A DNA stretch of 63,850 nucleotides, counting the filler, from Reclinomonas americana ATCC 50394 (Eukaryota): assembly GCA_048213135.1 (NCBI GenBank). It is 19 parts of 19 records of this genome, joined end to end, with 100 filler letters (N's around TTAATTAATTAA, not from the genome) between each part and the next. Parts side by side here need not be neighbours in the genome. Positions count along the whole stretch, not along the records: positions 11,828 to 21,409 come from AFZH01022359.1; 18 more parts are not named here. One strand, written 5' to 3'. The position numbers and the translations under genes were made by a program. Within the stretch, counting starts at the first letter, position 1, and each line of letters opens with the position of its first letter. Shown here piece by piece: positions 5,564 through 49,430 of the stretch. A model generated the notes under the pieces. That model did not search any database. It was not told where the DNA came from and was given only the letters and a program-made list of their open reading frames with translations.

Positions 5564-8115
5564 TCACGGCAGGCTCTGCACGGGCGGATAGCACGCCACG
5601 TGCATGTACTGCGGGCCCGTGAACTTGGCGTACACGGCGGTGAGGCCGTTGGGACACCGTGGTGACTCGGTGGAGCGCACATGTGCCCTCCACAACACGT
5701 CAAGCACCGGCTGCACCTCGGCCATGTCCCAGCCAAAGAACGATGACAGCGTGTCGGCCTGCATGCACAAAAAATGTTTGAGTGCGAGGAGGGAAAAGAG
5801 AGACAAAAGAGGCACAACACACAAACATACCGCAGCAGGCATGTCCAGCGTGTAAAACGCCAGCAAGACGCTGGTCTGCGCAATCAGTGATGATTCGACG
5901 CCGACCAGGTCGTACTCTTGCAGCGACAACTCCATGAAGTAGCACGACAAGTGGAACAACACGGTGTCGTCTTGCAGAATCTGCTCAATCTCCTCCGCAT
6001 CTGCACAGTGACAGGGGTAGCGGGCGCGCACAGTGAGCATCTTTTGCAGACAACAACATCAATTAAAAACAGCGCAGATGCGGACACGCAACTGCAGTTG
6101 GCTTGGCGGGCACGCGACCAGGCATGGAAGAAGGAGCACAGCCACGAGTATGGCGTGACCACCGTGAGCTGCCACTGGAGGGCCTCCAGCATCAGCTTCT
6201 CCATGCGAATTGTCTACGAAAAAAAGTCAATACATGACACCTCCTGTTTCACATTTTCTCAACACTACACACCTGCTCGGCCGTGAAGGCGTTCTGAGTG
6301 GCCTCCACCAACGCATCCACTGGTCGGGGGACGACTTCCTCGTATTTGCTGTAATGAGGACGAGAAGAGAGTCAATTCCCCGTATCATCCATTCGGGGAA
6401 GGTGGCGGTGGTGAAGAGACGCAACATGGCCAAGAACAGAGCGGCGGCGCCAGCGAGTTGCAGGTGCTTCCGCAGCACCTTCATGCGTGACAAGAACCGG
6501 TCCAAAATGCTCACTGTGCGGCGAAAAGTCAGCCACACAAAGACAAGCGAAAGAATATTCTAAGAAAAGAGGAAAAGAGAACAAATCGACACCCCACAAA
6601 CCCCCCCCACCCGACCACACAGCACCAGCACCACAGACAGACATGCGCATGCAAGACGGAGGACAGAAAGTAATTCCGTACAGATTGTCAATTAAAACAG
6701 ATAAGAAAGCGGGGTTGTGAAACAGCAAATCAATACTAGACGGGTACAATAAGAAAAGACAGACAGACAACTCCGGCCCCAACCACCAACCACCCACCCA
6801 CCCACACACACACTCACCAGCCAAGCAGAGTGTTTCTGTTGAGCAACCGAGTTCGTGGTTGACGTCTGACATCCAGTCGAGCAGCATGGTGCGGTTGGCG
6901 GGTGTGACGTCGCCACCGCAGGCCTTGTGCATTTGCAAGTAGTTCGCACTGGCCATGTGAAGCACCTACAGAGCACACACACACACACAAGAGAGCGAGT
7001 GAGCATGACGTGAATTGTAAGACGGTAACGTTTCACCTTCACCGCCCCCAGCATCTCACAATTCGCTCACATCAAAGGCTAACCGCAACTGCGCTACCAC
7101 CATTGCTCAAACACTCGCTCTCACATACAGAGAGATACAGAAGAAAGAATCACCAAAGGGAGACTCGCCACGAGACACACACGCAGAGAGGAGAGAGAGA
7201 ACACGTTCGTGTGCGTCAGCGCTACTTGCCTGTTATGGAGGGTCGGGGGAAGGAGAAAAAAGGACAACTCACGCGTCTTCTCGCACCCACAAAAAAAAAG
7301 ACAAGTGCACACGCGCGTGTGAAGAGAGAAGAGAGACAGAGAGAATACAGCGCGTAGATGCATCACACGAGAGAATAAACGAGGGCGCAAAAAAGAATCG
7401 ACATCACACACACACAAGACATGTGCTGCACCACCACCAAACTCACCTCACTCGCATGCATGGTTCGCGCTGTGGCCAAGTCCTCCTCGGCCATCACCGG
7501 ACCCTGCGCGTGTGCAGGCTGCTGCTGCTGTTGCTGTTGCTGTTGTTGTTGTTGACACAGCTCGTCTTCCTCCTCCTCCTCAGAGTAATCCACATCGTCG
7601 TCGTCAGCAGAGTGCATGTCGGCATCTGTTGATGGCGGTTGTTGTGCGGAGAACGTCTCAAAGCCTGCGGCCTCGTAGGCGAAGCCTGGCGACGGCAGCA
7701 CCACATCTACACACACAAATGCAATATTCAGCACCAACAAACGCAGCAGTGGAGAGATGCAACACACAAAAACAAACCCTCGTGGGCGTGAGGCGAGGCC
7801 ATGACGCGCAGCTCCATGCCTACAAAGCAGCAACGGGCATGAGTACTCCACACACACACGCAATTAAACAAAAAAGGAATGGCAAGTTCGCGCGATGGCG
7901 GGGCATCTCGCCGCACACAAACACACTCACCGCACCCACTGGCCTTGCTCGCAGCTGCCGCAGCTGCGGCACCACTGCCACTGCTGCTGCTGCTGCTGCT
8001 GGTACCAACACACGTCGATGCAGACAGCTGCGTGGAGACAACAAAAGTGAGCGCGCGCGTGTGACAACACAAACAGAAGACACGACTCTCTGCTCACCTC
8101 CATTGCGGCCAGCAT
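5564..8115 (-). CDS. A/B-type cyclin (multi-exon)
   Basis: Cyclin box split over exons: RTMLLDWMSDVNHELGCSTETLCLA / VSILDRFLS..LQLAGAAALFLA / KYEE / MEKLMLEALQWQLTVVTPYSWL. C-terminal box YFMELSLQEY..VYAKF. Low-complexity poly-Q/S N-terminus; start at 8115 is tentative. Confidence 0.9.
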
Positions 8116-11300: not shown

Positions 11301-11992
11301 GTCGAGCGGCGTCGTTCAATACACTGGAGCTAGCAGGTAAGTGCATGTTTCCCTGTTGTGCCATTCTCGTGCACTGGCGTAGAGGGTTATGATCTCTGAC
11401 CGCGCACTGTGTTGCCCAACTCCCAGTGCGACTTTGGTGGCTTGAGCGATGCTGTGAGCGGGTATGTGAGTTTGTGTCTCTTGTCTCTCTCCCCTATTCC
11501 CCACCTTTCCAACCTCCTTCCCTCGCTCTCTTCTCCTCCTCTCCATCTTCGCAACGCTATTCTCACCCACACCTGCAGTTCGGTGCACCCAAGTGCACAA
11601 CACGCGTTGCACGGCCAACCATCTTCTGCTTCGCTGCAGCGGTATGTGAACCTGTGCGTGTCACCACTGCTTGTTGTTTGCGCTCGTGCAACGCTTCCAC
11701 ATCGCTCACACGAGTGGGGTTTGCCATNNNNNNNNNNNNNNNNNNNNNNNNNNNNNNNNNNNNNNNNNNNNTTAATTAATTAANNNNNNNNNNNNNNNNN
11801 NNNNNNNNNNNNNNNNNNNNNNNNNNNGATGAGAGCATGCATCGATATGAGCTGATAATGAACCATCTGAGCGCTTCTCTTGCAAGGAAACAATGTCTAC
11901 TGCATGGCTGTGGTGGTGCGAGGCAGAGGAGAGAAGCAGGCGTGCGGCGGTGCTGCTGCGCGCGCCGGTACCCGGCCGCACCTGGCCCGGAT

Positions 11993-12587
11993 GGAATCCT
12001 TCCGTAACACGTTTTCCGTGTGGAACACGAATGGAATACGCCCGGAGTAATGGGCTGTAAGAGTTTTACGACTTTAGAGACGGATTCCGACACGGAAAAC
12101 TCACCACCACACGGATTACGAGTGGAACACAGACGCAATCCGTCGCACGACTCACATGCATGTGAGTGAGCGACGAGGCCAAATTCTCTCTAAGTCACTC
12201 AACTCCAGTGCATCACACACCAAGAAACACCCACAGCACGTGAAACAATCCACCGCGGTTCATTGTGTTCCAAAACATGCGCTCCACACAGCACAAGCGA
12301 GTGCGGCAACTCCAACAATGCAGGCGATGAGTGAGGCGCGGAACCACCCACCCAACTCACTTTTTTTGACCGTGTGTGAGAAACACACAACGCCAAGTCG
12401 CGCGGCGAGTCACATCCTGCTCTCTGACAGATTCTCTACAAAATCACCGAGTGGCTGCGTGAGGAAAATGAACGAAAAGCGTCGCTCTCACTCACACGGC
12501 GGTTGTCCGAGAAACTCTGGACGAGGGGAAAACCCACGCGGAATCCATTTTCCGTGCACGGAATCCGTGTTCCCAGGGACGGAATCC
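11993..12587. repeat. Clustered GGAATCC / TTTTCCGT motif repeats (second cluster at 9562-9641)
   Basis: GGAATCC or its complement at 9562, 9593, 9635, 11993, 12082, 12540, 12560 and 12581. TTTTCCGT or its complement at 9583, 9615, 12012, 12092 and 12548. Confidence 0.7.
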
Positions 12588-14600
12588 ATACCGGACTCTC
12601 CCAGGGATGCATGCTTATAATTATAATTATAATTATATAATATTGCCGTAATTATGAATGTGGCGCACATTGCTGCAAAGCAGAAATGGCGGGAGCCAGT
12701 GAGTAACGGTCAAACAAGCAATTGACAGGAGGGAGGGGTGCAAAGGGCCAGAACAAAGCACACCAGGGACAACAGCAGAGACCGTTCCCAAGCTCACCTT
12801 TCACCTGCACTCATGGAGTGCGTCGAGCAACGAAGAACACACGACGTCCGTGGGTAAACATTCTGGTACTTAAACACACTTCCAAGCACGCCGACGCAAC
12901 TATTTTTCCTGTTGGTGCGCGCAGTCGTGTGAGTACCACCACCATCAGCGAAAATATACACAGCTCGAACATGATTGGTAGTACGCACATAAAGTCTGGA
13001 GACACTTCTCAGTCATGTTGGCAGCACTCTTGATGGTGCGGAGAATAGGAATGCCATCCACAAGCCGGGAGCAGGCGTCGCGACACACGTACAACACACA
13101 CACACACACACACCATCATGGTCACAGGCTGCTCACTGCGTTTGCAAACAGATGACGAATGAGTCCCAAGTGCACTTGCTACACTTCCACACTGACCGCA
13201 CGCAACCACTCACCGCATCCTGTTATTGACCCGTAACATACATGAAGCACACGAGACGTGTACAGCATGCATGCTGCTTGGTGTGTGTGTGTGTGTGTGC
13301 AGGAGGGACGTGCGCACGGCTCCAATCATCGGCGTGGTGGCTTCCAGATCAGTCCAGTTGGGAGTAGTTTGAGCGAAAGAGCCAGTCGCGTTGCAAGTAA
13401 TAAGAAAAGGGGTCGATAAAGATGAGAGGGGTAGTGGGAAAACAAAAAAGAAGATTGCAGATAGAAACAAGAGAAAGATCTGATATATAAAATAAAAAAA
13501 AATCACACTCGGAGTGTGAGAAACAAAAAGAAGACACACATACACACACACACACTCGAAGATCGCATGTGCACGGTGAGAAAAATGACAAGACTCAAAA
13601 TGAGCACGGCCACGGGTTAGGAGACGGCGCAATAATAATGCAAGTAAAAGTGAGAAAGTGTACAGCCCTCACAATGGAGGGGGAAAATAAAAAAGTAAAC
13701 ATATGAAACAAATAACAACTAACAATAGCCAAACAAGAAGCCAAGATATTAGCTTCGTAGAATACAGCACAGGTCACACCCCACGTGAACCACATGTAAG
13801 GCGCTGCGGCACGGCGTCCATCGCGAACGTTCACCTGGCACCGGCGCTGGCGGCCGTCACTTGGCGCTGTACGTGCGCTGGTACGCGAGTCAGCGTGGTG
13901 AAGATGGAGAACAGATTGCGATGTACGTGCAGTTTGTAGCCGCTGGCTAGGCACCCGGCGCGTTGGCGACGAATACCACATACTGGCTCCGTAGACCGTG
14001 CCATCCGCCGACATTGGCGCCAACGCTCGTCTCACTGCCGCGAAACAAAACCGTCATTCTCACGCAGAGACCGAGACAATTGCAAGAAGGATTGGCGTGA
14101 GAACAACGAAGAAACACGAAAACCAAAGAATGGCAGAAGAGAGGAAAGGGACAGAGAGAGAGAGCAGGAACACAGTGCCGATGAGAGTGAATCACCATCA
14201 TGCTCGACACTTGACAAACACACTAGTGCACTGATAGTCGGGATAGTGCTGCAGCACACAACCGAGCTCAGTGAGAGGGAGGAGAAACGCGGAACATGTG
14301 TGATAATCTCCTCCATACTCCTGTTCCTTTCTCCTTCAATCTCCCTCCCGTTCCAGTTCTCTTTTGCTTTCCACCATTCTCACCTCTTCCACGAGACGCA
14401 CTGTGAACTGTTCCACGGCGATGCAAAGCGGCGATAATCCGACGTCCTGCACCTCCGCACCTCCAACACGCTGTACCCCTGTTTGCGAGTGTGAGTGTGG
14501 ATTCATGAAAACCGATGCTGCACTCAGTTTTTCTCTCATCCTCTCCCTCTCTCTCCCCTTGCTCTCCCTCACCAAAACGCAACATGCAATAGGGCTCCAG

Positions 14601-15261
14601 CTAGCTGTCGTCTAATCGAGCAAGCCGCGCCTTCAGTCGGCCGCAACGAACTAACTGTCCGATTACTCCTTGACCGAGTAGCCACGAGAGGTCCTCGACA
14701 CCTACATCAGCGGCTCGGCGGTGAAGTCGTCGCACACGTTCGTCCAGAACGTGCAGCGCATCGATCATGCGGTCAATCGCGGAGTGCATGTGATCTTCGG
14801 CAATGAGGTCGACGGGGCGTGCCCACGAGCGCTCCAATCGCTCCAGTCGACGATTGCTTCTGTCCAGCGATTTGTAAATGACTTGCAGTTGCGCACCAAT
14901 GTCTGCATCGACATCGTCCGCCGCCGCTGCCGCTGCTGTTGGTGCTGCGCCAGTTCCAAAAAATGGCACCGCTCCAGATCTCGCAGTGTGCGGGGTTGCT
15001 GTCGCTGAAGCCACTGCCCAGGCCGCCGCCGCCGCCGCCGCAGCCGCTCCAGCTCCAGTCACCGCCCGCGGAAAAACAGGTGAGCTTCGTTGCGGATTCG
15101 GGGCAGCAACAGGCCACGCTGCTGATCCTGACGCCTGACCTCCAGACGTATAAGTAGCTGCCAACCGGAACCGCCAGCGCTGCACAGGAGGATTCGTGTC
15201 GACAAGCATCGGCACTGGCAACGGTGCCGCGTCCGTCGGAGCGAGTGGCAAGCCGGCACCC

Positions 15262-15294
<33 letters not shown>

Positions 15295-18200
15295 CCACCA
15301 CCACAACCACCACCACCACCACCACTACCACCACCAGCACCAGCGCCAGTACCAGCACCAGAACCAATGCGGGCCATGAACACGTAGATGCCCAGGATGC
15401 ACGCCGCTGCCTTCATGTCGCGATGGACCCGCAGTCTGCCCAGCAAACAGGCTGGCTGACATTGTGGGCATGTCAGAGCGCGCTTGCCGCCAATCTTCTT
15501 GCCGTATGTGCCTCCGCACATGCATCGCCGGGAGGAGAGGCATTCGGAGACCCGCACAAGAGGCTTCTTTGGCGCAAGTGGATGGGCGTATCGCCGCAGA
15601 TCCAACTGTTGCACCAGTGTGGCAAAGTTGTCGCTCTGGACGCATAGCATCAATCAATCGTTAACAACAATGTAGCAGGCAATCAAACATGACTGAACAT
15701 ACAAACAACACACCTGCAACTCCATGCGACGAACGAGCTGGCCGAACCCAGAGAGTATGTTCAGAGACACAGTCTTCTTGGACGTGGTGCGGCGTCGCCA
15801 GATAACATCACCGGATTCGGTGACGATATTACGCTTTTTCGCATTCATATCGTTCACCCCATGCGAATAGAATGGCATAACCACTGAGGCGTAGCGGCCC
15901 TCTCCACAGTACCTGACAATGCGGAAGAGTGGTCAGCGACACGCTGGCAGGTATAACAGAACAGAGTGTAAAACAACGCACCGACGAGCGATGAAGTTCT
16001 GGTAGCCCTCACGCGTCGTCCGCATCGCATCCCACGCAGCTTGCTTCAGCCTCTCGCACTCGGCACGACATCCACGGTCCATGAAGCGGCCGTATTGCCC
16101 ACAGATTGCGTCCAGCTGTCGAACGTGGTCCGCAAATGGTTTCAGTTGCCTTTCCGCATAGGCGTCGCCCTCCGTGAAGAAATGCAGCCCGTCTGCATAG
16201 AGAGAAGTCGACAATCGCGCAACCAAATCAGCACACGGAACACCAACGGAGCACACATGCAAGCGCACGCACGCACGCACACTCACCCCTGTCCAGTTGC
16301 ACAATGGCAAGCATGTGAACGATACCTGGATCGAACGCGGCCACCGTATTCGCCAAACATTGCCGACGATAGCGGTCCCGAATGGCGGCGTCGCGCCGAC
16401 AAAGAGGGGGGCCGTCGACATTACCAATGGCACTGTCGACTTCAGCAATTGCTGCCGCAGCCCTCGCCAGCTCGCCCAGTTCAGCAGCGATGCGCTCGCC
16501 GCTCCACATTCCTCGCCAGGTTGCCGATTTCTTGCATGACAGCACTGACTGCAAGGTCGGTGAACGGTCTTCCGCGCGACGGATGCTGTCCATCCTGCCG
16601 GCGTTTTCGTCTCTCTGTGCCACAAACAGCGAGCAGACGAGCTCGACAAGCGACATCTGAGACAGCTGTCGCAGTACTGCATGCGTGCGTGGTGACGTAA
16701 ACAGTGAGTCGCTTGCGCCGATGAATAATCGAAAAATCTTTTAACCACTCCACCTTTGCGATCCATCTTCGCTGCACGCAGATCATGTTGAAGCTGCACT
16801 TGTGTCGCGCTCCGCATGTCGTCCGTTCCCGTAAAATTTCTCCATTGCGACCCCGACTTGAGAGCCAGTTCGTACAGCGCTCTGTTGGCTGCCTTTCCAG
16901 CGTACATACTCATACGGGCGGGGTTGTGTTTGAGGGTGGAGAGCTGCCGGATGCGTTGTCGCCTCTTCTGATGGTGTCGTCGGGGCTCGATGAGGAACCT
17001 GAACGCTACCTCCATCAACCGCCCTCTCACACTTGCATTGACATGCCCTTGATTCGATAAAACTATGAATAAGCAGCACGTTAGTTGTCGCACACAAAGA
17101 TGGTGTTCTTTTCGCAAAAAAATCTATATACTGACGCACCAAAGTCAATCGGTGATGCATTCGGCAGATGCCGACCGGTGGCGTCAGACAAGATGTCCAT
17201 GTTTCGTCGAGAAAGCAGAGTTTCTGCGTCGACGCGCGGAATCATTAGTGCGACGTATGGAAGCGCGCAGGATTGATCACACGCAAGAGTCACATACCGC
17301 CCACTTGAGACCGCAGTTCGCGCATGATGAACACGCGAATACAAGCGGTGAAGCACGAGAACAGTGCATCTCGGGCGCGCCAATGTCTAACAGCGAGGGC
17401 GGCGTCTTCGTGGCCCTCCAGTGGCAGTAATTGCACGGCATCACGACTGTGGCACGCCCAGTGCAGCAAGTGATCGAAGCTGTTGGCACCAACGATGCCA
17501 TGGTTGGTTTTGCCGGTCGAGTTTGTCTTCGTCATGCCAGCCAGGAGATCGCGTGCGCTGACTCGATAAAGCCCAGCGCCTGGGGCAGTGTATCGACAAG
17601 CGGCCAGCAGCAGTCGGCACCATTGCAGGTGAGAATTCATCAAGAATTCGGCCACCGTGGTCCCAATCCCAAGTGGCGCGTGGAGATTGGAGGCGAGAAT
17701 GGCGACGTCATCGTGTGCTGGTGGCCGAGTCGACAGCCAGAAAGAACGGACGAGCTCGAGGCCAGCATAGTGTTGTTGGAGGTGGTCAACGGGCGCGGGC
17801 GTGGTGAGGAGTTCATCAATGGCACGCCCAAGTTTCTCAAGCTCTTCCACGACCACTTGGATCGCGTTTTGAAAAACAGTGTTCACACCGGCAACCGTGG
17901 GATCGTCAACATCTGCGCGTATTCAGCGCATACAGCAACGGAGTGAATTCCATGCAAAGGAAACTAAAGACAAATACAGGTAAATGGTACTCAACTCCCT
18001 GGGCGTGCCCGTGGCTTCATCTGTCGCCACGCGGTTGGGAATCGGTTGCCACCAACCACAGCGGTGTAGTTGGCGCGTAGCAAGCCCACGGCGTGCTTCG
18101 CCCACTCGAACAGGGACACAAGGAAGTCGCGGGCGGATGCAGCAAGTCTTTCTTCGCAGCACTCGACATCCACCAGCTGTTGTGATAGTAGCAAAAACCT

Positions 18201-21200
18201 GGCGGCTGCATGAACCAAACAGCGCAGTGAGACAATATACCAATAGCAATTAGAGACGTGCGCATTAACACAAACCCATGCGATCCTGCACCGTTTCCAC
18301 TTGACTTGCCAGTGTGGGCGTCACCCAGCTCGCATGCGGCAACAATCCAACAGTCGCCACCCACGCGCCACAACCAATTGCGGTCCGCAACGCGGTGAGA
18401 ACGCCACGAAAATCGTCATTGGTGTGGGCAAGGGGTCGAACACGCTCCTGGACTAACCAGCGCACCGCCAGAGGGCCAACGTCAACAAGATTCGCAATGA
18501 ACTCAACGCTGGTCCGGATGCGTGTACGTGAATCAGCAGCAGCAGCCGGTGGCATCGGTGTGATAAATTTCGCACAAAGAACGTCCACACAGTCCTTGAG
18601 ATACTCCACATTAACAGCAGCAGTAGTGTCCGTCCGCGCCCACGCCGGTAACCCGTCACCAAATGCAGCACTCACGTCCACGCGCATCAACCGGCTGAGC
18701 ACAAAGATATTGGCCCTCGTCTCAGATGCGAGACACACGCAGGTGACGAGTTCATCCCCACACGACTCTGCAAGTCTCTTTTTGGCGTAGTCAACGCCGC
18801 CATCGTGATCGTCATCCCAGGAGCAATAACCCGCAAGTGTCAGCAGCAGTCGCGCTCCCTCGGCGGTCAGCTCCACCAGCCGCTTTTGGTAACAGGAAAG
18901 TAACGCGGAGAGGCATCGGTCGCGGTCGCCGACGGCACTCCCATATGCATTTGCGCCGCCACCGTCACTGGCACCATCCTTCCCGTCACTGCCGCTCCCA
19001 CTTGCGCCGTCGCCGTCACTGTCACTGGAGCTAGCACCGGCACTCCAGCTGTCACCCTCACTGGCACTGGCACCGTCACTGTCTATGTCGGTGCTGGACT
19101 CCAGAAATTGCAGCATATCACACAAGACAGCAACTTCCGCCAATCGCTTCCCGCATGCAACTTGAGAGACGTTTCCTGCGTGTCACCCCAGGTGTTTCCA
19201 ATGTGAGTCATAGACGCGTTGTGTGGTGCACCAGACTCGAAGTGCACAGAAACTCACCCTGCACGACACGGTCAAGCATGCGCGCGACGTTGAACACTGT
19301 CGCAGTTGACATTCCGAATGCTTCCGCAAATATCCGAGGACACTGCTCGCGCAACAATCGCACGGCGGTCTCTGTACACGTGGTCCGTGCTGATGAGCTC
19401 AAATCAACCCTCACAGCAGCTGGGGGAGCCACCGCTGCTGCTGCTGCTGATGGTGCCGAGTCACTGGCCACGAGCAGTGCGCCATGACACGACTGGTAAA
19501 GCCCAAAGAGAGCAATTGCCGCTTGCACTCGCAGAGTCCCGGCATCCAGGCATAGTGTCTCCACACTCGACAGATCAGCCGTTGAGGAGAGCAACTGATC
19601 CTGCCGCGTTTGCTTCGCCAAGTGGCGGACCTTCTCCTTGCTGCACCCCACACAAGGATACGCAAGGTCAAATGACTGAAGAAGGGGTACGCGAATCCAA
19701 CTTCACGCACACGACGGCAATGTTGTTCCTGAGATTAGGATCATCTCGGTCGCCGGCAGTTGGTACTCCTAGCTGGTCGACCACGCGATCCAGCTGGCGC
19801 TGAGTGGCGCTGGCGCTGGCGTCACCGCTTACGAATGCGACGCAGTCCAGCGGTTGCATTGATGCAGCATGGAGGAATGCCGCTCGTGAGCAACGCGACA
19901 CCCGATACTTGTTGTCAACGAGAGACGTAAGCAGGTACACAGCTGTGCATGGTGTGCGGAGGAGTAAGCAATGGGAAGACACAAAAATCAGCAAGAAAGT
20001 GATAAACCTTTCTTTGATAACTGGTCAAAGTCCGGCGCCGTCGACTCTGTGGTGCCCTTCTTCTCCGCCTCCTCGTCCTCCACCACCTCCTCCTCCTCGA
20101 CCTTCTCCTCGTCGATATCATCGATATCGTCACCCACTGTCAGAGCATCAGCGACCGGGCAAGCAATAGTCACTTCGTCTGCTCCCTCCCCTTCCTGCTC
20201 CTCCTCCTCGTCCTCCTCCTCCTCGTCTGCATAAACGCGACTCCCGCCATCTCCGGCCGGCCGGCGTGGCGCCGGATCCGGGGCAGTCGTCGCAAACAAC
20301 AGCGGCCACTCGGCCACTGGCATGCGAACCAGCTGATCGGCCTGCTCCCGCATGGCAGTCGTCACAACTCCAACAAGACGCGCGTCGCCTGCGCCTCCTG
20401 CCTGAGCAACGGTGACGGCGGCTTCGGCAGAGTTCACGAAATGCTGGGCGCAAGCGCGCACTGTGCTGCTGCACTCCTCCTCCGACGTCGCGACCGGACT
20501 GTCGGCGATGACCACGGCCAGCCTGTCGAGTGCTTCTCCGAGAGTGTACACGACATCCTCGCATTCCATGTCCAAGATGCTCACACCTGCATTGCGTTGG
20601 CGCGTCAGCTCCGACATACTGGTATCGGCGACACAAGAGTCGACTCTCACCATCACTTGCACGCGCAGCTGGAGATGGAATCGAGACGGGCTTGCCAAGT
20701 GCAGCGTTCTCGTGCTGAACACGACAGGCTTTGACAACGCGAAAAATCTTCGCCCATCCTCGCGCTAAAGTGGTGGAAAATGAGCAGACTGCGGACACAC
20801 ACACGTGCGCTCACGAGCATTACTCACAGAGCACATCCTGGAGATGATGCATCTTGGATCTTGCGGTGACAAGTGACCCGAGTGCGTGTTGGACGATCTC
20901 GCTCGCCTGTGACGCAGCGTGCAATCCCAACTCTTCAAACTCGTTGTCACGCTCCGAATTCACGCGCGCGAAAGCAAGAAGGTCTGCACATGAGCGAAAT
21001 GAGTGACAAACCACAAGAACATGCACCCATTCGAAATCCACAAACCAAGTTCGTTACTTCTCATGTCGGACAATAGATATACGTATTCGTTGAATGCCGT
21101 AGAAAGAGTGCTGCTGACCTTGTCCAAACTGGCCTGCTGTTCTTGAGTGGCGTTGCGAAAAAGTGACGATTCGCCGAGGAGAAGATTTCTCCCCGCCGTG

Positions 21201-21273
21201 TCCACACAATCGGGAGGGTTCAGACAGTACGCGAGGCATATGGCATTGCCGATAGCACTCCACACATTAGCCA
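14601..21273 (-). CDS. Giant intron-containing Fanzor2/TnpB-like RuvC nuclease fusion protein (at least ~1,876 aa, 5'-partial)
   Basis: Exons 21273-21058, 20983-20828, 20764-20651, 20586-20008, 19942-19711, 19640-19258, 19175-18276, 18205-17996, 17912-17298, 17223-17140, 17062-16754, 16676-16287, 16192-15982, 15912-15714, 15635-14601. All 14 introns are GT..AG and the frame is preserved. RuvC-I VAAFDPG (D 16330-16332), VVMPFY (P 15873-15875), VSECLSS (E 15543-15545), CMCG..CPQC zinc finger, HRDMKAA (D 15417-15419). Confidence 0.8.
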
Positions 21274-21292
21274 CTGCAGATTATTCAATGAG

Positions 21293-21409
<117 letters not shown>

Positions 21410-21523
21410 NNNNNNNNNNNNNNNNNNNNNNNNNNNNNNNNNNNNNNNNNNNNTTAATTAATTAANNNNNNNNNNNNNNNNNNNNNNNNNNNNNNNNNNN
21501 NNNNNNNNNCCTCTCTCTCTCTC

Positions 21524-26089: not shown

Positions 26090-26189
26090 NNNNNNNNNNN
26101 NNNNNNNNNNNNNNNNNNNNNNNNNNNNNNNNNTTAATTAATTAANNNNNNNNNNNNNNNNNNNNNNNNNNNNNNNNNNNNNNNNNNNN

Positions 26190-26971
26190 CTGGAAACTTT
26201 TTCTGTCTCGCCATCACCCCCGACAGTCTGCACGTGGTGAGCGGAAGTGGTGGCGATTGTGTGCTGGTGCGGTCGCTGGCGAGTGGGAAAGAGGTGCGTC
26301 GATTGGAGGGGCACACTGCCTCTGTGATGTCAATTGCTGTTACTTTCGACGGGCAGTACGTGGTGAGTGGGAGTTTTGACCAGACAGTGCGCGTGTGGTC
26401 GCTCGCGAGTGGCGAGGAAATGCGACGGATGGAGGGACACACTGACATGGTGGGGTCTGTTGCTGTCTCACCCGATGGTCTGTTTGTGGTGAGTGGCAGC
26501 TATGATCGCACAGTGCGCGTGTGGTCGCTGAAGAGCGGAGATGAGGCGCGCCGGTTGGAGGGTCACACTGGGTGGGTGCGAGCAGTTGCTGTCACACCCG
26601 ATGGTCAGTTCGTTGTCAGCGGGAGCAATGACGACACTGTGCGTATCTGGTCACTGGCGAGTGGCAAAGAGGTGCGACGTCTGGCAGGCGACATTGGTTT
26701 TGTAATGTCTGTGGCTGTCGCTCCCGACGGGCAGCACATTGTTTGTGGTGGCGTGGACGTGCATGTGTGGTCCACACCTTGCGGCCTCGCCAGGTTTGAG
26801 GTGGACGCTGCACGCTCGGCAATGCTCGCCGTGCAGCAGCTGCAAGCGGAGGAGAGCGGTGAGGAAGCGGATCGCCGCTGCCTGCCAGAGCAAGTGCTGC
26901 GGTGCTTTATATTGGAGGAGGCCAGTATGTTGCTCTTCCGCTGCGGCGCGGATCCCCTGCTGCACCTGTGA
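26190..26971 (+). CDS. WD40-repeat protein, plus array copy 1 (5'-truncated by gap)
   Basis: GH..V.S.A..PDG..VVSGS.D.TVRVWS repeats plus the tail DRRCLPEQVLRCFILEEA..FRC. Confidence 0.95.
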
Positions 26972-27113
26972 GGTCTTTGGGGGGGAGTAATGAAGTGTTG
27001 TTGGAGAAGAAGGCGGGGTTGAAACGTCGAGACAGTCCCACTCTCCTCTACAACTTCGTTCATTCGTCTCACACGCAAGCACACCCTCTCATCCCCTCCC
27101 CCCCCCCCCCCCA

Positions 27114-28205
27114 ATGTCTTTCGCTCATCCCTCAGTACTCATCTGTAGAACTGTGCGTGGACACACTGCATGTGTGACGTCAGTTGCCGTCACTCCCGAC
27201 GGTCAGCATCTCGTGAGTGGTAGCTGTGACAGGACAGTGTGTGTGTGGTCACTGGTGAGTGGAAGGGAGGTGCGACAACTGGAGGGACACACGCGCGCGG
27301 TGCATTCTGTCATCGTCACTCCCGACGGCCAGTACATTGTGAGTGGGAGTGTCTTCGGAAAAATTCTAGTGTCGTCACTGGAGAGTGGCGACGAGCGACA
27401 GATGGATTTCGCTGGGGATGAGTGTTGTCTCGCCATCACCCCCGACAGTCTGCATGTGGTGAGCGGAAACCGTGGCGATTGTGTGCTGATGCGGTCGCTG
27501 GCGAGTGGGAAAGTAGTGCGTCAATTGGAGGGACACACTGCCTCGGTAAAGTCAGTTGCTGTTTCACCCGATGGCAAGCACGTGGTGAGTGGCAGTGAAG
27601 ACCAGACAGTGCGAGTGTGGTCACTCGCGAGTGGCGAGGAAATGCGGCGGATGGAAGGGCACAATGCCTCGGTGATGTCTGTTGCTGTCTCACCCGATGG
27701 TCTGCATGTGGTAAGTGGCAGCTATGATCGCACAGTGCGCGTGTGGTCGTTGTCGAATGGTGAAGAGGTGCGGCGAATGGATGGTCACACTGGACGGGTG
27801 CGAGCAGTTGCTGTCACTCCCGACAGTCAGTATGTCGTCAGCGGGAGCGAAGACAGGACTGCGCGAGTGTGGTCACTGGCGAGTGGCAAAGAGGTGCGAC
27901 GGCTGGAGGGATACACTGACTGGGTGCGATCAGTCACAGTTTCTCCCGATGGGCAGCACCTGGTGAGTGGCGGCGACGTGGACGTGCGAGTCTGGTCCAC
28001 ACCTTGCGGCCTTGCTCAGTGCGAGGAAGATGCCGCTCGGTCGGCCATGCTCGCCGTGCAGCAGCTGCAGCGAAAGAGAGCGGAGGAGAGCGGCGTGGAA
28101 GAAGATCGCCGATGTTTGGTGGAGATGGTGCTGCGGTGCTTCGTTGTGGAGGATGCAGAGGCGTCATTCTTCCGCTGCCGCGCGAGTCCCCTGCTGCACC
28201 TGTGA
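27114..28205 (+). CDS. 7-bladed WD40 protein, plus array copy 2 (363 aa, intronless)
   Basis: Starts MSFAHPSVLICRT; seven WD repeats; tail DRRCLVEMVLRCFVVEDAE..FRC. Confidence 0.97.
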   Translation: MSFAHPSVLICRTVRGHTACVTSVAVTPDGQHLVSGSCDRTVCVWSLVSGREVRQLEGHTRAVHSVIVTPDGQYIVSGSVFGKILVSSLESGDERQMDFAGDECCLAITPDSLHVVSGNRGDCVLMRSLASGKVVRQLEGHTASVKSVAVSPDGKHVVSGSEDQTVRVWSLASGEEMRRMEGHNASVMSVAVSPDGLHVVSGSYDRTVRVWSLSNGEEVRRMDGHTGRVRAVAVTPDSQYVVSGSEDRTARVWSLASGKEVRRLEGYTDWVRSVTVSPDGQHLVSGGDVDVRVWSTPCGLAQCEEDAARSAMLAVQQLQRKRAEESGVEEDRRCLVEMVLRCFVVEDAEASFFRCRASPLLHL

Positions 28206-28331
28206 GGCCTTTGGGGGGAAGTAATGAAGTGTTGTTATAGAGAAGAAGGCGGGGTTGCAACGTCGAGACGGTCCCATGATCACTCGTTCATCCATCTTCT
28301 CGCACGCATACACACCCCCTCATCCTTCCAA

Positions 28332-29589
28332 ATGTCTTTTGCTCATCCCTCAGTACTCTTCTGTAGAACCCTGCGCGGTCACAGGCGCACGGTGCATTCT
28401 GTCGCCATCACTCCCGACGGCCAACAAATCGTCAGTGGAAGCAATGACAAGACAGTGCGTGTGTGGTCGCTGGCGAGCGGCGAAGAAGTGCGTCGTCTGG
28501 AGGGACACACACGCGGGGTGTGCTCCGTCGTCGTCACTCCCGACGGCCAGCACATTGTGAGCGGAGGTGACGACAAGACAGTGCGAGTGTGGTCAGTGGC
28601 GAGTGGCAAAGAGGTGCGACAGATTGCTTTCACTGCGGACTTGTGCTGTCTCGCCATCGCCCCCGACAGCCTGCACGTGGTGAGCGGAAGTGGTGACGAC
28701 TGTGTGCGGCTGTGGTCACTGGCGAGTGGAAAATGTGTTCGACGGTTGAAGGGACACACGAACTGGGTTCTGTGCGTGGCTGTCACACCCGATGGTCAGT
28801 ACGTGGTGAGTGGGAGTGATGACTGCACAGTGCGAGTGTGGTCTCTGGCCACTGGCAAGGAAATGCGACGGATGGAGGGGCACACTGCCTCGGTGGTGTC
28901 TGTGACTGTCTCACCCGATGGTCTTTACGTGGTGAGTGGCAGCGCTGATTACACAATGCGCGTGTGGTCGTTGTCGAGTGGTGAAGAGATGCGACGGTTG
29001 AAGGGTCATGCTGACTGGGTGCGATCTGTCGCCGTCACTCCCGATGGTCAGTTCCTCGTCAGCGGGAGCGACGACAAGACAGTGCGTGTGTGGTCGCTGG
29101 CGAGTGGCGAAGAGGTGCGACGTCTGANNNNNNNNNNNNNNNNNNNNNNNNNNNNNNNNNNNNNNNNNNNNTTAATTAATTAANNNNNNNNNNNNNNNNN
29201 NNNNNNNNNNNNNNNNNNNNNNNNNNNGACAGTGTTCGTCTTCTCTTCCCTCTCAAGTGAACTCGAGCGGGCAACAAGTGCGGCGATTGAAAGGTCATGC
29301 GGATGTGGTGCAGTCGGTCACCGTCAGTCCCGACGGGTCGCTCTTGGTGTCGGGGAACTGGGACGGGTCAGTGCAGGTGTGGTATACGCCGTGTGAGCAC
29401 GCGCGTCGAGAACTCCGCCTGGCGCGAATGGCGTGGGGGGCCGTGCGGGAGCTGATGGAGGACGAGAAGGAAGAAGACGAGGAGGATGATTCGCGCTGCT
29501 TGCCAGAGATGGTGTTGCGGTGTTTCCTTGTCGAGGATGCTGCCGTCGTTCTCCACCGGTGCTTTGCGAATCCCGACATGCACTTGTGA
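28332..29589 (+). CDS. WD40 protein, plus array copy 3 (interrupted by gap 29128-29227; the part after the gap may be a fourth copy)
   Basis: Starts MSFAHPSVLFCRT at 28332; after the gap, the last blade and the tail DSRCLPEMVLRCFLVEDAA. Confidence 0.9.
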
Positions 29590-35652: not shown

Positions 35653-36720
35653 TCAATCGCCTGCTGCGGAAGAGTGCCGGAAGAGCATCGCCTCTGCATC
35701 CTCGACGATGAAGCACCTCAGCACAATCTCCACCAGGCAGCGGCGATCTACTTCCTCCTTCTCCTGTAGCTCCTGCACGGCGACCATGGCCCGATGTACG
35801 CAGTCGACTTCTTGTCGCGCGAGACCAAGCGGCGTCGACCACACTCGCACCGTCATGTCTAGACTCCCACTGACGACGTGTTGCCCGTCTGGACTCACGG
35901 TCACCGATCGCAAGCTGTCAGTGTGCCCCTCCAACCGCTGCATCTCCTCGCCACTTGCCAGTGACCACACACGCACTGTTTCGTCGCGACTCCCGCTCAC
36001 AATGTGCAGACCACTGGGGGTGGCAGCCACAGATAACACGGCGTCGGTGTGCCCGACGAATCGTCGCACCTCTTGCCCACTCGCCAGGGACCACACACGC
36101 ACTGTCATGTCCAAACTCCCACTCACAGCGTGCTGGCCATCGGGAGTGGCAGCGACAGCGTACACCCATCTGGTGTGACCCTCCATTCGTCGCACCTCCT
36201 CTCCACTCGCCAGTGACCACATTCGCACGCAGTTGTCCATAATCCCACTCACTACGTGCTGACCGTCGGGAGTGACGGCAACTGACGTCACTGGTGCGCG
36301 ATGGCCTCTCAAACGTCTCACCACCTTGCCACTCGCCAGGGACCACACCGCCAACTCAAACCCTCTGCTCACCACAAGCAGACCATCGCAAGTGACGGCA
36401 ACGGACCGCACGTTTTCGGCGGCTCCTTCCAACCGTCGGACTTCTGCCCCACTCTCCATTGACCACACACGCACTGTGTGGTCATCACTCCCACTCACCA
36501 CGTGCTTTCCATCGGGAGTGACAGCAACAGATTTCACAACTTTTGTGTGTCCCTCCAGCCGTTGCACTTGCTCTCCACTCGCCAGTGACCACACGCGCAC
36601 TGTCTTGTCATGACTACCACTTATAATGTGCTGACCATCGGGAGAGACGGCGGCCGACCACACTCCTTCGGTGTGTCCACGCAGTACCTTGCAGTGGAGG
36701 GTGGAGGTGGCGAGTGACAT
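35653..36720 (-). CDS. 7-bladed WD40 protein, minus array (355 aa)
   Basis: MSLATSTLHCK start, 7 WD repeats, tail VDRRCLVEIVLRCFIVEDAEA. Confidence 0.97.
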   Translation of the reverse strand: MSLATSTLHCKVLRGHTEGVWSAAVSPDGQHIISGSHDKTVRVWSLASGEQVQRLEGHTKVVKSVAVTPDGKHVVSGSDDHTVRVWSMESGAEVRRLEGAAENVRSVAVTCDGLLVVSRGFELAVWSLASGKVVRRLRGHRAPVTSVAVTPDGQHVVSGIMDNCVRMWSLASGEEVRRMEGHTRWVYAVAATPDGQHAVSGSLDMTVRVWSLASGQEVRRFVGHTDAVLSVAATPSGLHIVSGSRDETVRVWSLASGEEMQRLEGHTDSLRSVTVSPDGQHVVSGSLDMTVRVWSTPLGLARQEVDCVHRAMVAVQELQEKEEVDRRCLVEIVLRCFIVEDAEAMLFRHSSAAGD

Positions 36721-36894
36721 TGGTTAGCGCGCAACGAAGGGAGAGGGACGGAGAGTGCGGAGCAACGGGACATGAAGTTGTCGTTCTCTGCTTTCGTAAC
36801 AACAACAAGGTGCGTGGCGTTTCATTGCATACACAAAGACAGGAGAGAAGAGAAAAGCGACGGCGAAGAAAGAGAAAGCCGGTCGACTTCGGAA

Positions 36895-37965
36895 TCACAA
36901 TCGCAAGCAGCGGAACCGAGTTGCCTCCGCCTCTTCAACAATGAAGCACCTCAGCACAATCTCCACCAGACAGCGGGGATCAACCTCCTCCCCTTCCTTC
37001 TCCTTCTCCTCCTGCATCTCCTGCACGGCAAGCAACGCCGAGCGAGCGGCTTCCACTTCCCACCGGGCAAGACCGAGCGGCGTGGACCACACACGCACCG
37101 CCTTGTCCACACTCCCACTGACAATATGCTGCCCGTCGAAACTCACGGCAATAGACCTTACAGCATCCGTATGTCCATCCAGCTGTCGCACTTGCTCTCC
37201 ACTTGCCAGCGACCACACACGCACCGTACCATCAAAGCTGCTACTCACAACGTGTTCGCCATCGGGAGTCACAGCCACAGACAGCACCATGTCAGTGTGC
37301 CCCACAAGTCGTCGCACTTCGTCCCCGCTCGCCAGTGACCACAGCCGCACTGTGTAGTCTCCACTCCCGCTCACCACGTGCTGACCGTCGGCAGTGACGA
37401 CGAGAGACACCAGAGGTGCAGCGTGTCCCTCCATCCGTCGCACCTCTTCGCCACTGGCTAGTGACCACATACGCACAGTGCAGTCGCGGCTCCCACTCAC
37501 AACGTGCTGGCCGTCGGGAGTGACGGCGACACAGTTCACCACACCGGCGTGTCCCTCCAACCGGCGCACCTTTTCTCCACTCGCCAGTGACCACACTATC
37601 ATCTCATAACCTCCACACACAATGTGCTGGCCATTGGGAGTGATGGCAACAGAGTGCACCAAATCAGTGTGCCCCCTCAACCATCGCACCCCCTGTCCAC
37701 TCGCCAGTGACCACACACGCACAGTCTTATCCCAGCTACCACTGAAAACGTGCCTGCCGTCGGGAGTGACAGCGAGAGATGCTACAACTCCAGTGTGGCC
37801 CTCCAATCGTCGCACTTGCTCGCCACTCTTTAACGACCACACGCGCACATTGCGGTCCTCACTCCCGCTCACCACGTGCAGACCGTCGGGAGTGATGGCG
37901 ACTGACCACAGCTCGGTGTGTCCACGCAACGTCTTGCAGTGGAGAGTGGAGGTGGCGAGTGACAT
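36895..37965 (-). CDS. 7-bladed WD40 protein, minus array (356 aa)
   Basis: Same architecture as neighbours, intronless. Confidence 0.97.
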   Translation of the reverse strand: MSLATSTLHCKTLRGHTELWSVAITPDGLHVVSGSEDRNVRVWSLKSGEQVRRLEGHTGVVASLAVTPDGRHVFSGSWDKTVRVWSLASGQGVRWLRGHTDLVHSVAITPNGQHIVCGGYEMIVWSLASGEKVRRLEGHAGVVNCVAVTPDGQHVVSGSRDCTVRMWSLASGEEVRRMEGHAAPLVSLVVTADGQHVVSGSGDYTVRLWSLASGDEVRRLVGHTDMVLSVAVTPDGEHVVSSSFDGTVRVWSLASGEQVRQLDGHTDAVRSIAVSFDGQHIVSGSVDKAVRVWSTPLGLARWEVEAARSALLAVQEMQEEKEKEGEEVDPRCLVEIVLRCFIVEEAEATRFRCLRL

Positions 37966-38130
37966 GGTTGGCGCGCGAGGGAGAGGGAGAGTGTCTGGAG
38001 GACGACAAGGAGCGGGACATTAAGTTTGTCGTTCTCTGCTTTCGTGCCGAGAGCAAGGTGCGTGGTGTTTCATTGCATATGTGCAGAAGGAAAGGAACGG
38101 AAGAGGATACGCCGGTCGACGTCGGAATCA

Positions 38131-39207
38131 CTATCGCAAGCAACGGAATCGAGTTGCCTCCGCCTCTTCAACAATGAAGCACCTCAGCACAATCTCCACC
38201 AGACAGCGGGGATCAACCTCCACTCCCTCTTTCTCCTCTCCCTCTTGCATCTGCTGCACGGCAAGCAACGCCGAGCGAGCGGCTTCCACCTCCCATCGGG
38301 CGGGACCTAGCGGCGTCGACCACACACGCACGTCCGGATCCATGTCACAGCAAACAACACACTGGCTGTCGGGAGTGACAGCGACAGAGCGCACCATTCC
38401 TTTGTGGTTTTCCAACCGGCGCACCTCTTCGCCACTGACCAGCGACCACACACGCACAGTGCGATCAAGGCTGCCACTCACAACGTGTTCGCCATCGGGA
38501 GATACAGCCACAGACAGCACCAGCTCAGTGTGTCCCACAAGTCGTCGCACTTCGTCTCCGCTCGCCAGTGACCACAGCTGCAATGCGCAGCGACCACTCC
38601 CGCTCACCACGTGGTGACTGTCGGCAGTGACGGCGACAGACCGCACCGTATCGGTGTGTCCCTCCATCAGTCGCACTTCCTCCCCACTTGCCAGCGACCA
38701 CACGCGCACCGTGCGATCCTGGCTCCCACTAACAACGCGCTGGCCGTCGGGAGTGATGGCGACACAATTCACAGCACCGGCGTGTCCCTCAAACCGTCGA
38801 ACTTCTTCTCCGGTCGCCAGTGACCACTCACGAGCTGTGTGGTCAAAACCGCCACTCACCACATGCAGACCATCGGGAGTGACGGCAACGGACTGTACCC
38901 AGTCAGTGTGTCCCTCCACCCGTCGCACCTCCTCTCCACTCGCCAGCGACCAAACACGTATGGTGTTGTCCCAGCTGCCACTCACAACGTGTTGACCGTC
39001 GGGGGTGATGGCAACAGATGCCACAACGTCAGTGTGTCCCTCCAGCCGGCGTACTTCCTCGCCACTTGCCAGCGACCACACGCGCACTGTGTGGTCCTCA
39101 CTTCCACTCACCACATGGCGACCATCGGGAGTGATGGCGACCGACCACACTCCTTCGGTGTGTCCACGCATTGTCTTGCAGTGGAGAGTGGAGGTGGCGA
39201 GTGACAT
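38131..39207 (-). CDS. 7-bladed WD40 protein, minus array (358 aa)
   Basis: Same architecture as neighbours, intronless. Confidence 0.97.
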   Translation of the reverse strand: MSLATSTLHCKTMRGHTEGVWSVAITPDGRHVVSGSEDHTVRVWSLASGEEVRRLEGHTDVVASVAITPDGQHVVSGSWDNTIRVWSLASGEEVRRVEGHTDWVQSVAVTPDGLHVVSGGFDHTAREWSLATGEEVRRFEGHAGAVNCVAITPDGQRVVSGSQDRTVRVWSLASGEEVRLMEGHTDTVRSVAVTADSHHVVSGSGRCALQLWSLASGDEVRRLVGHTELVLSVAVSPDGEHVVSGSLDRTVRVWSLVSGEEVRRLENHKGMVRSVAVTPDSQCVVCCDMDPDVRVWSTPLGPARWEVEAARSALLAVQQMQEGEEKEGVEVDPRCLVEIVLRCFIVEEAEATRFRCLR

Positions 39208-39395
39208 TGGTTGGCGCGCGAGGGAGAGGGAGAATGTGTGTCTGGAGGACGACGGACGGATCCACGACGGAGGAGAAATGGGACATGAAGTTGTAGTTCT
39301 CTGCTTTCATGCCGCGAAAAGGTGCGTAGCGTTTCATTGCCTACACAAAGAGAAGAGAAGAGAAGAACGACGACGAAAGCCGATCGACTTCGGAA

Positions 39396-40475
39396 TCACA
39401 ATTGCAGGCAACGGAACCTGGCTACCTCCGCCTCCTCAACAATGAAGCACCGCAGCACCGTCTCGACCAGACAGCGAGGATCTACCTCCTCCCCCTCATT
39501 CTCCTCTCCCTCTTGCATCTGCTGCACGGCAAGCAGCGCCGAGCGAGCGGCTTCCACCTCCCACCCGGCGAGACCAAGTGGCGTGGACCACACACGCAAG
39601 GAGCAATCCCTGCTTCCGGTCACTATGTGCTGTCCACTGGAAGCAACAGCGACTGCGCGCACCACCTGTGTGTGCCCTCGCAGGCGGTGCACCTCCTCGC
39701 CACTTGCCAGCGACCACACACGCACTGTCTTGTCGTTGCTCCCGCTCACCGCATGTTCACCGTCGGGGGAGATGGCGACGGCATGCACTGCACTGGTGTG
39801 TCCCTCCAACCGGCGCACCTCTCGCCCACTCGCCAGCGACCACACTCGTATCGACTTGTCGCGACTTGCACTGACCACATGCTGACCGTCGGGCGTGACA
39901 GCGACTGACCACACCGCATCGGTGTGACCCTCCAACCGCTGCACCTCCTCTCCACTTGCCAGCGACCACACGCGCACCGTGCGATCCTCACTTCCACTCA
40001 CCACATGAAGATCATCGGGAGTGACGGTGACACTGTTCACAGCACGGGAGTGTCCCTCGAGTCGTCCCTCCTCGTCTCCTGTGCCCAATGACCACACGCG
40101 AACTGCTGTTTCCTCGCCCGCGCTCACAACACGCTCTCCATTGGCGGTGACGGCGACAGAGAACACCGATACAGAGTGCATTCCCCACCGACACACTTTG
40201 TCTCCACTCGCCAGTGACCACACTCGCACTGTTCCGTCGTCGCCCCCACTCACAACATGCCGACCGTCGCGGGAGACTGCCACGCACGCCACCCATCCCT
40301 TGTGGCCCTCCAACCGCCGCACTAGTCGTCCACTGCGCAGGCACCAAACACGCACTTTCTTATCTGCGCTCCCGCTCACGATGTGCAGGTTGTCGAGAGT
40401 GAGGGCGACGCAGGTGACAGCACCTCCGTGGCCGTCAATGCGCCTGCAGTGGAGAGTGGAGGTGGCAAGTGACAT
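39396..40475 (-). CDS. 7-bladed WD40 protein, minus array (359 aa; divergent first three blades)
   Basis: ATG of MSLATSTLHCRR at 40475; conserved tail. Confidence 0.95.
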   Translation of the reverse strand: MSLATSTLHCRRIDGHGGAVTCVALTLDNLHIVSGSADKKVRVWCLRSGRLVRRLEGHKGWVACVAVSRDGRHVVSGGDDGTVRVWSLASGDKVCRWGMHSVSVFSVAVTANGERVVSAGEETAVRVWSLGTGDEEGRLEGHSRAVNSVTVTPDDLHVVSGSEDRTVRVWSLASGEEVQRLEGHTDAVWSVAVTPDGQHVVSASRDKSIRVWSLASGREVRRLEGHTSAVHAVAISPDGEHAVSGSNDKTVRVWSLASGEEVHRLRGHTQVVRAVAVASSGQHIVTGSRDCSLRVWSTPLGLAGWEVEAARSALLAVQQMQEGEENEGEEVDPRCLVETVLRCFIVEEAEVARFRCLQL

Positions 40476-40650
40476 AGATGGCGCAAAGTCGGCGCGCAAG
40501 GGAGGAGAAAAGAAAGAGGACATCAAGGAGCGGGACGCAGTCAGCTTTTTCGTGCCATGCTGAACTCGGAGACATCAACAAGGTCTTTCATTACATACAC
40601 AAAGAAAGGCAAGGAAGAACGGTGTCAACGGAAGCCCGTCGACTTCAGAA

Positions 40651-46953: not shown

Positions 46954-46967
46954 GACAGGGAAAGAGG

Positions 46968-47021
<54 letters not shown>

Positions 47022-49399: not shown

Positions 49400-49430
<31 letters not shown>

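Follow-up and report, generated by a model that had tools for sequence, protein, structure and literature searches.

The window analysed here is a stretch of 63,850 nucleotides (nt) from the eukaryote Reclinomonas americana ATCC 50394 (assembly GCA_048213135.1), and its minus strand carries, at 14601–21273, a predicted coding chain of 15 exons that ends in a nuclease module of the Fanzor type. The Fanzors known so far are compact RNA-guided nucleases of about 600 amino acids (aa) that are carried by transposons, and the protein predicted here is three times the usual size. The analysis leans slightly towards the explanation that the chain is one long, intron-rich host gene whose 3′ exons are derived from a Fanzor, that is to say, a host–Fanzor fusion formed by exon capture. 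During such a capture, upstream helical host exons would have been spliced onto the old Fanzor frame through an acceptor lying 17 codons ahead of Met1179, where that frame probably once began. The product would be a large helical scaffold bearing a RuvC DNA nuclease, probably still active, followed by a low-complexity tail of 256 aa. The Fanzor origin of aa 1375–1617 is itself highly probable, and it is fairly likely that the whole chain is a single gene, the fusion and the alternative of a giant mobile Fanzor being counted together. All features of this gene described below lie on the minus strand, and positions are counted along the window.

The Fanzor-Type Nuclease Module

It has been reported that Fanzors differ from ordinary TnpB proteins in carrying Asp-Pro-Gly (DPG) at RuvC-I and a RuvC-II Glu six residues ahead of the zinc finger, with the RuvC-III Asp 4–8 residues past the finger (Yoon et al. 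2023, PMC10711439), and the six-residue rule for the Glu holds for both Fanzor clades (2026 review, PMC13565253). In the spliced protein, four Fanzor motifs stand in the correct order. RuvC-I is a DPG (D1381, 16324–16332), the Fanzor form according to PMC10711439. The canonical RuvC-II position is occupied by hhhPxY (aa 1476–1481, 15867–15884), in which Pro1479 replaces the Glu of classical TnpB, and an alternative RuvC-II Glu (E1563, 15543–15545) lies six residues ahead of the first Cys of the zinc finger. The RuvC-III Asp (D1605, 15417–15419) follows 13 residues past the finger. The zinc ribbon between the last two, composed of C1570-x-C1572, 15 residues and C1588-xx-C1591 (15459–15524), was seen below threshold with PF07282, as well as with Atlas and hhalign. 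The rewired Asp-Glu-Asp site is complete (D1381, E1563 and D1605).

A profile comparison was made with viral Fanzor-type proteins. Giant-virus contigs were fetched with a degenerate pattern of a Fanzor motif, which gave 122 loci, 80 of them with flanks; these contained 45 open reading frames (ORFs) of at least 250 aa with the motif, of which 42 had DPG, 31 the full motif order and 29 were non-redundant. When the spliced aa 1135–1640 were aligned with these 29 ORFs by hhalign, the score was 52.9 (probability 88.8%, E 2.5e-6, 192 columns, 16% identity), and in 100 shuffles the score did not exceed 25.5 and the probability did not exceed 2.5%. The alignment covers aa 1375–1617, that is, 15381–16350 in exons 12–15, and brings the landmarks of both sides into register, namely DPG, the Pro at the canonical RuvC-II site, the alternative Glu, the zinc fingers and the RuvC-III Asp. 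With hmmsearch, 9.2 bits were obtained, compared with 3.5 for the best of 500 shuffles. A relaxed Fanzor pattern (spacing 100–200, CxC or CxxC, 4–15 residues from finger to Asp) matched the protein once, at aa 1381–1605, and matched none of 20,000 shuffles of it. The sequence-only reading had placed the nuclease core in exons 12–15, and it is indeed in the last four exons that the RuvC and zinc-ribbon module of Fanzor type is found.

The spacing of the motifs fits the viral family as well. In 20 of the 29 viral ORFs, hhhPxF stands 47–78 aa ahead of the alternative Glu; hhhPxY occurs exactly once in the spliced protein, 84 aa ahead of E1563. The reading frame of DPG is not that of the zinc finger, and the two are united only by splicing, after which the distance from DPG to Glu is 179 aa, within the viral range of 117–185. 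Since the frames need splicing and the resulting spacing fits this range, introns 12–14 gain some independent support, and the Fanzor-derived part is interrupted by at least three introns. In Atlas, a language model, all 30 matches of the 90-aa zinc-finger exon carry PF07282 (top match 0.95, 175 of 256 features shared). On these grounds the module is best read as a very divergent Fanzor copy.

Searches for closer relatives were carried out with single exons. The 90-aa zinc-finger exon gave 65 candidates in a word-based search against longer proteins, none at E ≤ 0.01, and a single match among 1.84 billion representative proteins with HMMER, a repeat protein that was unrelated by inspection. 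Exons 15 and 12 had no match among PDB sequences at E ≤ 10 and no relative in viral contigs, and exon 9 had no relative in metagenome contigs. A metagenome locus matching exon 15 was set aside; it matched only the eight-residue search pattern, within a bacterial ORF of 514 aa that was un-Fanzor-like by eye. In phages, tblastn returned four matches at E 2–9, one of them under a TnpB gene, none significant. The other TnpB genes of the Helicobacter prophage record were considered as a bridge and rejected, being without DPG and without the alternative Glu.

The Coding Chain and Its Introns

Rebuilt from coordinates alone, the chain from 21273 down to 14601 consists of 15 exons and 14 GT-AG introns of 63–94 nt. 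Exons 1–5 are located at 21273–21058, 20983–20828, 20764–20651, 20586–20008 and 19942–19711, exons 6–10 at 19640–19258, 19175–18276, 18205–17996, 17912–17298 and 17223–17140, and exons 11–15 at 17062–16754, 16676–16287, 16192–15982, 15912–15714 and 15635–14601. The coding sequence is 5,633 nt long and encodes 1,876 residues, with a TAG stop at 14603–14601; the 5′ end of the gene is missing. The 15 exons, 14 introns and 1,877 codons including the stop that the sequence-only reading had given were thus reproduced exactly. Its statement that the contig ends inside an intron also agrees with the sequence, as a run of (AC)57 closes the contig just upstream of the acceptor at 21274.

Between 14601 and 21280, the minus strand has consecutive stop-free segments of 350, 396, 210, 305, 164, 258 and 106 codons. 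For model building, all GT and AG sites in the 14 gaps between open segments were listed, and the pairs that keep the frame were chosen. A cheapest-path search over GT-AG pairs also found other open chains, with 11–12 introns and 1,977–2,003 codons, in which some introns are read through; the 15-exon chain was given preference, as it keeps to the long ORFs and is alone in uniting the DPG and zinc-finger blocks, which lie in different frames. The donors at 21057 and 17995, described earlier as best fits only, are weak by a leave-one-out matrix (24th and 39th percentile of all GT sites, with the remaining 12 donors at the 84th–100th), so that the doubt was justified in this respect; on the other hand, when the site list is worked through by hand, each of them is the only donor in its zone that fits the frame.

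The introns of the chain are short and have fungal-style signals, with a CTNAY branch-like motif 16–35 nt from the 3′ end in 11 of the 14. Their phases are unevenly distributed (11 of 14 in phase 1, two in phase 2 and one in phase 0), and such an excess of phase 1 is unusual. An introner origin was considered and dropped, the pairwise likeness of the introns being no higher than that of shuffles (best pair 14, null maximum 19).

Codon usage is alike in the Fanzor part and in the rest of the gene: relative synonymous codon usage correlates at 0.69 between the N-terminal and nuclease parts, and the GC content at third codon positions is 0.61 and 0.65, respectively. Together, the match in codon usage, the in-frame splicing and the DPG–Glu spacing would speak for a long residence of the Fanzor part in its host.

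The N-Terminal Part, the Missing Fanzor Parts and the C-Terminal Tail

The N-terminal part, encoded by exons 1–9 (aa 1–1134, 17298–21273), is rich in Ala, Leu and Val and has acidic and Ser/Asp/Gly low-complexity stretches. The acidic run and the Ser/Asp/Gly run mentioned in the sequence-only reading are both present in the spliced protein. The same reading recognised no transposase or helicase motif upstream, which is in keeping with the present results: Walker A and DEAD/H motifs are absent from the protein, which also has no internal repeat, and the N-terminal exons show no Pfam family at E ≤ 1 beyond rows at chance level. For the folded part of exon 7, a word-based search gave 5,620 candidates and no relative. 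In Atlas, this part lies near solenoids of the ARM/HEAT/TPR type, with the TPR protein SYO1 at 0.95 (157 shared features) and V-ATPase H, RICTOR, CFAP69, Nup192, MEI1/PRD1 and HEATR5A among the other neighbours; 20 of the 30 matches are unnamed, and the solenoid likeness is only a lead. The AF2 model of exon 9 is all-helical with a pLDDT of 40.2. In summary, the N-terminal part of about 1,140 aa is an orphan sequence and is probably helical.

Parts that usually accompany a Fanzor nuclease were also looked for. Similarity to WED/REC, sought for aa 1135–1380 and aa 1–360 against the Fanzor and TnpB alignments, did not exceed an hhalign probability of 0.3%; among family members, the conservation of these regions is low. 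Exon 1 matched the N-terminal helix of TnpB faintly in hmmsearch (−4.1 bits), a match that was discarded, as hhalign gave it no support. With respect to a guide RNA, the contig has no Rfam match at E ≤ 1, and the 300 nt past the stop fold no better than shuffles (z +1.6). Inverted repeats were not found on the 9.6-kb contig, where the only repeats are microsatellites, nor was a second copy found within the 64-kb window. The missing inverted repeats, RNA family and second copy, within the contig and window, are counted for one gene. The suggestion of an undescribed class of OMEGA effector, made at the outset, therefore goes beyond the data, neither RNA guidance nor a WED/REC domain being visible.

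The proportions of the protein are also unlike those of viral Fanzor-type ORFs. At least 1,380 aa precede the DPG, compared with at most 474 in the 29 viral ORFs, and 271 aa follow the RuvC-III Asp, compared with 1–40. The C-terminal tail of 256 aa (14604–15371) is rich in Ala, Gly and Pro and then becomes a charged stretch that is helical by eye only.

One Gene or Two, and the Other Explanations

Whether the chain is one gene or two rests on the predicted introns 9 and 10 around the 84-nt exon 10. Intron 9 (17224–17297, 74 nt) has a donor at the 93.9th and an acceptor at the 93.4th percentile, with CTNAY 21 nt from its 3′ end; intron 10 (17063–17139, 77 nt) has a donor at the 92.1st and an acceptor at the 71st percentile, with CTNAY 18 nt from its 3′ end. 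Exon 10 (17140–17223, aa 1135–1163) contains Met1143 (17200–17198), and its codon-usage score of 0.196 per codon lies between the coding and non-coding means. Segments as good as these two introns occur in the window at 0.6–1.4 per kb per strand, real introns included, so that chance is unlikely to have placed two of them in frame on either side of an open 84-nt exon (about 1e-3 as our own rough product). If intron 9 is not spliced, the upstream frame ends at a TGA (17290–17292, from the sequence and the ORF list), and the next start, Met1143 or Met1179 (17013–17015), follows after only 90–275 nt. This gap (17290–17015) lacks the GA/CT-rich low-complexity DNA that is found past the final stop and on the contig upstream. 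The single-gene reading is favoured because introns 9 and 10 are well formed, the frame is kept and the gap would otherwise be only 90–275 nt.

The main rival is that exon chaining has merged two neighbours on the same strand, namely an orphan helical gene ending at the TGA of 17292–17290 and a separate Fanzor, which is considered rather unlikely. The latter would be a protein of about 700–730 aa starting at Met1143 (17200) or Met1179 (17015), with a core of about 440–480 aa and the 256-aa tail. It agrees with this rival that described Fanzors stand alone, with an average of 620 aa (PMC10530073) and 638 aa in SpuFz1 (PMC10432273), that the in-frame stop comes two codons past the donor of intron 9, that the linker has a weak coding score, and that DPG lies about 200 residues past Met1179, a normal TnpB-like distance. 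Past Met1179 comes a strand-like stretch with Pro at its end and after that a basic patch, and nuclear localisation signals at the N terminus are typical of Fanzors (PMC10530073). Met1179 may thus be the ancestral Fanzor start, by likeness to the TnpB/Fanzor N-terminal consensus seen by eye only; hhalign gave no support for this region as a Fanzor N terminus. However, two genes would require the gap of 90–275 nt to hold two good intron-like segments that keep the frame, and if these were introns of a 5′ untranslated region, the downstream transcript would have to start inside an upstream coding exon; the lack of GA/CT-rich DNA in the gap counts against two genes as well. The linker codon score and the context of Met1179 both also fit the capture model.

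Two further explanations concern the nature of the nuclease itself. If the gene were a giant mobile Fanzor, the roughly 1,300 helical aa ahead of RuvC would be an expanded REC/WED region, the protein would be RNA-guided and its guide would lie nearby, a growth that can be likened to that from TnpB to Cas12. The intact catalytic triad is compatible with this, as is an N-terminal part that is probably helical like REC lobes, and Fanzor1 and Cas12 have been described with N-terminal, REC and RuvC extensions (PMC10432273). Against it stand the lack of hhalign similarity to WED/REC in aa 1–360 and 1135–1380, the absence of inverted repeats on the contig and of a second copy in the window, and the Rfam and folding results for a guide; moreover, the 256-aa tail moves any 3′ guide away from the nuclease ORF, and none of the 29 viral ORFs approaches the length seen ahead of DPG. 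Taken together, a giant mobile Fanzor is improbable. Still less probable is a decaying relic, in which the module would be a pseudogene or a nuclease-dead structural domain whose open frames are left from the recent past. Such decay would account for the extreme divergence (16% identity in hhalign and no relative among 1.84 billion proteins), the altered first zinc knuckle, the 7-residue insert ahead of RuvC-III and the unrecognisable WED/REC. But the three catalytic residues, the four zinc-finger Cys and hhhPxY are all kept, no stop interrupts the frame across five exons and about 730 codons, which show host codon usage, and the introns acquired have good signals, which implies long-term expression.

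To return to the host–Fanzor fusion, several results weigh against it. No relative of the N-terminal or the nuclease part was found in the searches made here with which the architecture could be compared. The splice thresholds were taken after the fact from introns 9 and 10 themselves, which makes the chance figure given above optimistic. The linker (aa 1135–1178) scores 0.154 per codon, where the coding mean is 0.378 and the non-coding mean −0.073; this is at about the 5th percentile of coding windows and below the 95th percentile of non-coding ones, and is therefore ambiguous. A Met and a basic patch stand just where a stand-alone Fanzor would begin. In the nuclease part, the strict published pattern, DPG x(120,160) E x6 CxxC x(12,18) CxxC x(4,8) D, is unmatched, owing to the 179 aa from DPG to Glu, the CxC of the first knuckle and the Asp 13 aa past the finger. 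Most of the hhalign signal is due to two anchors (a score of 39.6 for exon 15 by itself and of 21.1 for exon 12), and none is obtained with exon 13 or exon 14 by itself. For the TnpB zinc ribbon, PF07282, E is 0.0013–0.01 and the score 16.4–19.3 bits against a cut-off of 26.3.

In the same Pfam and NCBIfam scans, which covered single exons or unspliced read-through, PF01385 was not listed by Pfam and the guided TnpB family of NCBIfam (guided_TnpB, NF040570) scored 10.1 bits against a cut-off of 100. The read-through of exons 13–15, with X at two in-frame stops, gave no further Pfam or NCBIfam family, and its AF2 model has a pLDDT of 37.5.

Comparison with Known Systems

Like Fanzor1 (SpuFz1) and Fanzor2 (ApmFz2), the module has DPG, hhhPx[FY] at the old RuvC-II site and the Glu six residues ahead of the finger, together with a C4-type zinc ribbon and xRDxxxAxxI around the RuvC-III Asp, and its gene has spliceosomal introns and the codon usage of the host. 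It is unlike them in the CxC of its first knuckle, in the 7-aa insert ahead of RuvC-III, and in having at least 1,380 aa ahead of DPG and 271 aa past the Asp; nor were WED/REC similarity, inverted repeats, a guide RNA or a sequence relative detected in the searches made here. It has been reported that the intron density of Fanzor genes is host-like and reaches about 9.6 per kb, the proteins averaging 620 aa (PMC10530073), and that some Fanzor loci are without inverted repeats and transposases, as found in the study of the 638-residue SpuFz1 (PMC10432273). The sequence-only reading had named host-like intron density in its inference, which is overstated, as this has already been published for Fanzors. 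Neither introns nor the lack of a transposon context is thus a novelty; a Fanzor module within 1,876 aa or more of protein would be one. In the parts consulted of the literature on Fanzor domestication, exaptation and co-option, no eukaryotic Fanzor fusion was found, and supplementary tables may list long predictions.

With classical TnpB (IS200/IS605), the module shares the zinc ribbon and the RuvC-III block. When it was aligned by hhalign with 117 TnpBs of the Helicobacter clade, only this zinc-finger/RuvC-III block was seen (probability 51%, E 1.5e-4, 36 columns). In contrast to classical TnpB, the canonical Glu about 50 residues ahead of the finger is replaced by Pro1479, and the gene is eukaryotic and bears introns.

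Two kinds of host use of mobile elements offer parallels. TldRs are TnpB-like, nuclease-dead repressors and represent domesticated TnpB in bacteria (PMC13565253). The logic proposed here is the same, a module of the TnpB family having been recruited by the host for a function of its own. Their small size, bacterial origin, lack of nuclease activity and proven RNA guidance set TldRs apart from the present protein, which is huge and eukaryotic and has an intact triad. The other parallel is that of host–transposase fusion genes formed by exon capture, which were reportedly described by Cosby et al. in 2021 for the DNA-binding domains of DDE transposases in vertebrates. As in those fusions, the prediction is that host exons are joined to an acceptor immediately ahead of the element ORF and that the former Met becomes internal; unlike in them, the captured part would be a Fanzor module instead of the DNA-binding domain of a vertebrate DDE transposase.

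Contig Setting and the Rest of the Window

Nineteen small contigs make up the window, and between them stand 18 spacers of identical build (N44, then a 12-base linker with stops in all frames, then N44), for example at 2010–2109, 21410–21509 and 61276–61375. Most contig breaks adjoin microsatellites or long dinucleotide repeats, and contigs that flank a spacer are not certainly adjacent. The contig of the gene, 11828–21409 (9.6 kb), ends in the (AC)57 at 21295–21408, which reads (TG)n on the gene strand; this repeat and the spacer after it (21295–21509) truncate the 5′ end of the gene. On the next contig upstream (21578–24483, minus strand), there are two coding-looking, helical ORFs of 257 aa (24483–23713) and 169 aa (22084–21578). 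A GT closes the 169-aa ORF right beside the edge of the contig, and there is no simple way of connecting the frames with the acceptor at 21274; these ORFs could be 5′ exons of the same gene or belong to a neighbouring one.

Very long WD40 arrays are located at 26138–29183 (plus strand) and 35653–47238 (minus strand), with 11 ORFs of 277–457 aa (WD40 E 1e-44 to 1e-75), and resemble the giant WD40 repeat genes of NLR-type proteins. The minus-strand ORFs run on across two spacers at 35.6–47.2 kb, and this continuity suggests that the contig order is real; adjacency at the spacer of 21410–21509 is not proven by it. Among the 83 further ORFs of at least 120 aa in the window, 81 have no Pfam family at 1e-6, and the only recognisable domains are a cyclin C-terminal domain (5567–6058, minus strand, E 1.5e-11) and a right-handed beta-helix (49386–50174, plus strand, E 1.8e-8), so that orphan sequence is abundant in this genome. 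Scans of the whole 64-kb window revealed neither a tRNA gene nor an Rfam family at gathering score.

Significance

The question at stake is whether eukaryotes have domesticated Fanzors, as prokaryotes turned TnpB into Cas12 and TldR. If the chain were two genes, what would be left is a Fanzor of modest interest, very divergent and bearing introns, in a eukaryote rich in orphan sequence. If it is one gene, the union of a helical host-type protein of more than 1,100 aa with a Fanzor module whose triad is intact would offer a concrete, testable candidate for such domestication, and the product would be by far the largest Fanzor-containing protein among those compared. It is a tentative possibility that this gene is the first exapted Fanzor in a eukaryote, namely a solenoid-like scaffold gene with a captured Fanzor in which the Asp-Glu-Asp site has been kept, making a tethered nuclease that may be RNA-programmable. 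Were this true, it would be the eukaryotic counterpart of the domestications that led from TnpB to Cas12 and from TnpB to TldR.

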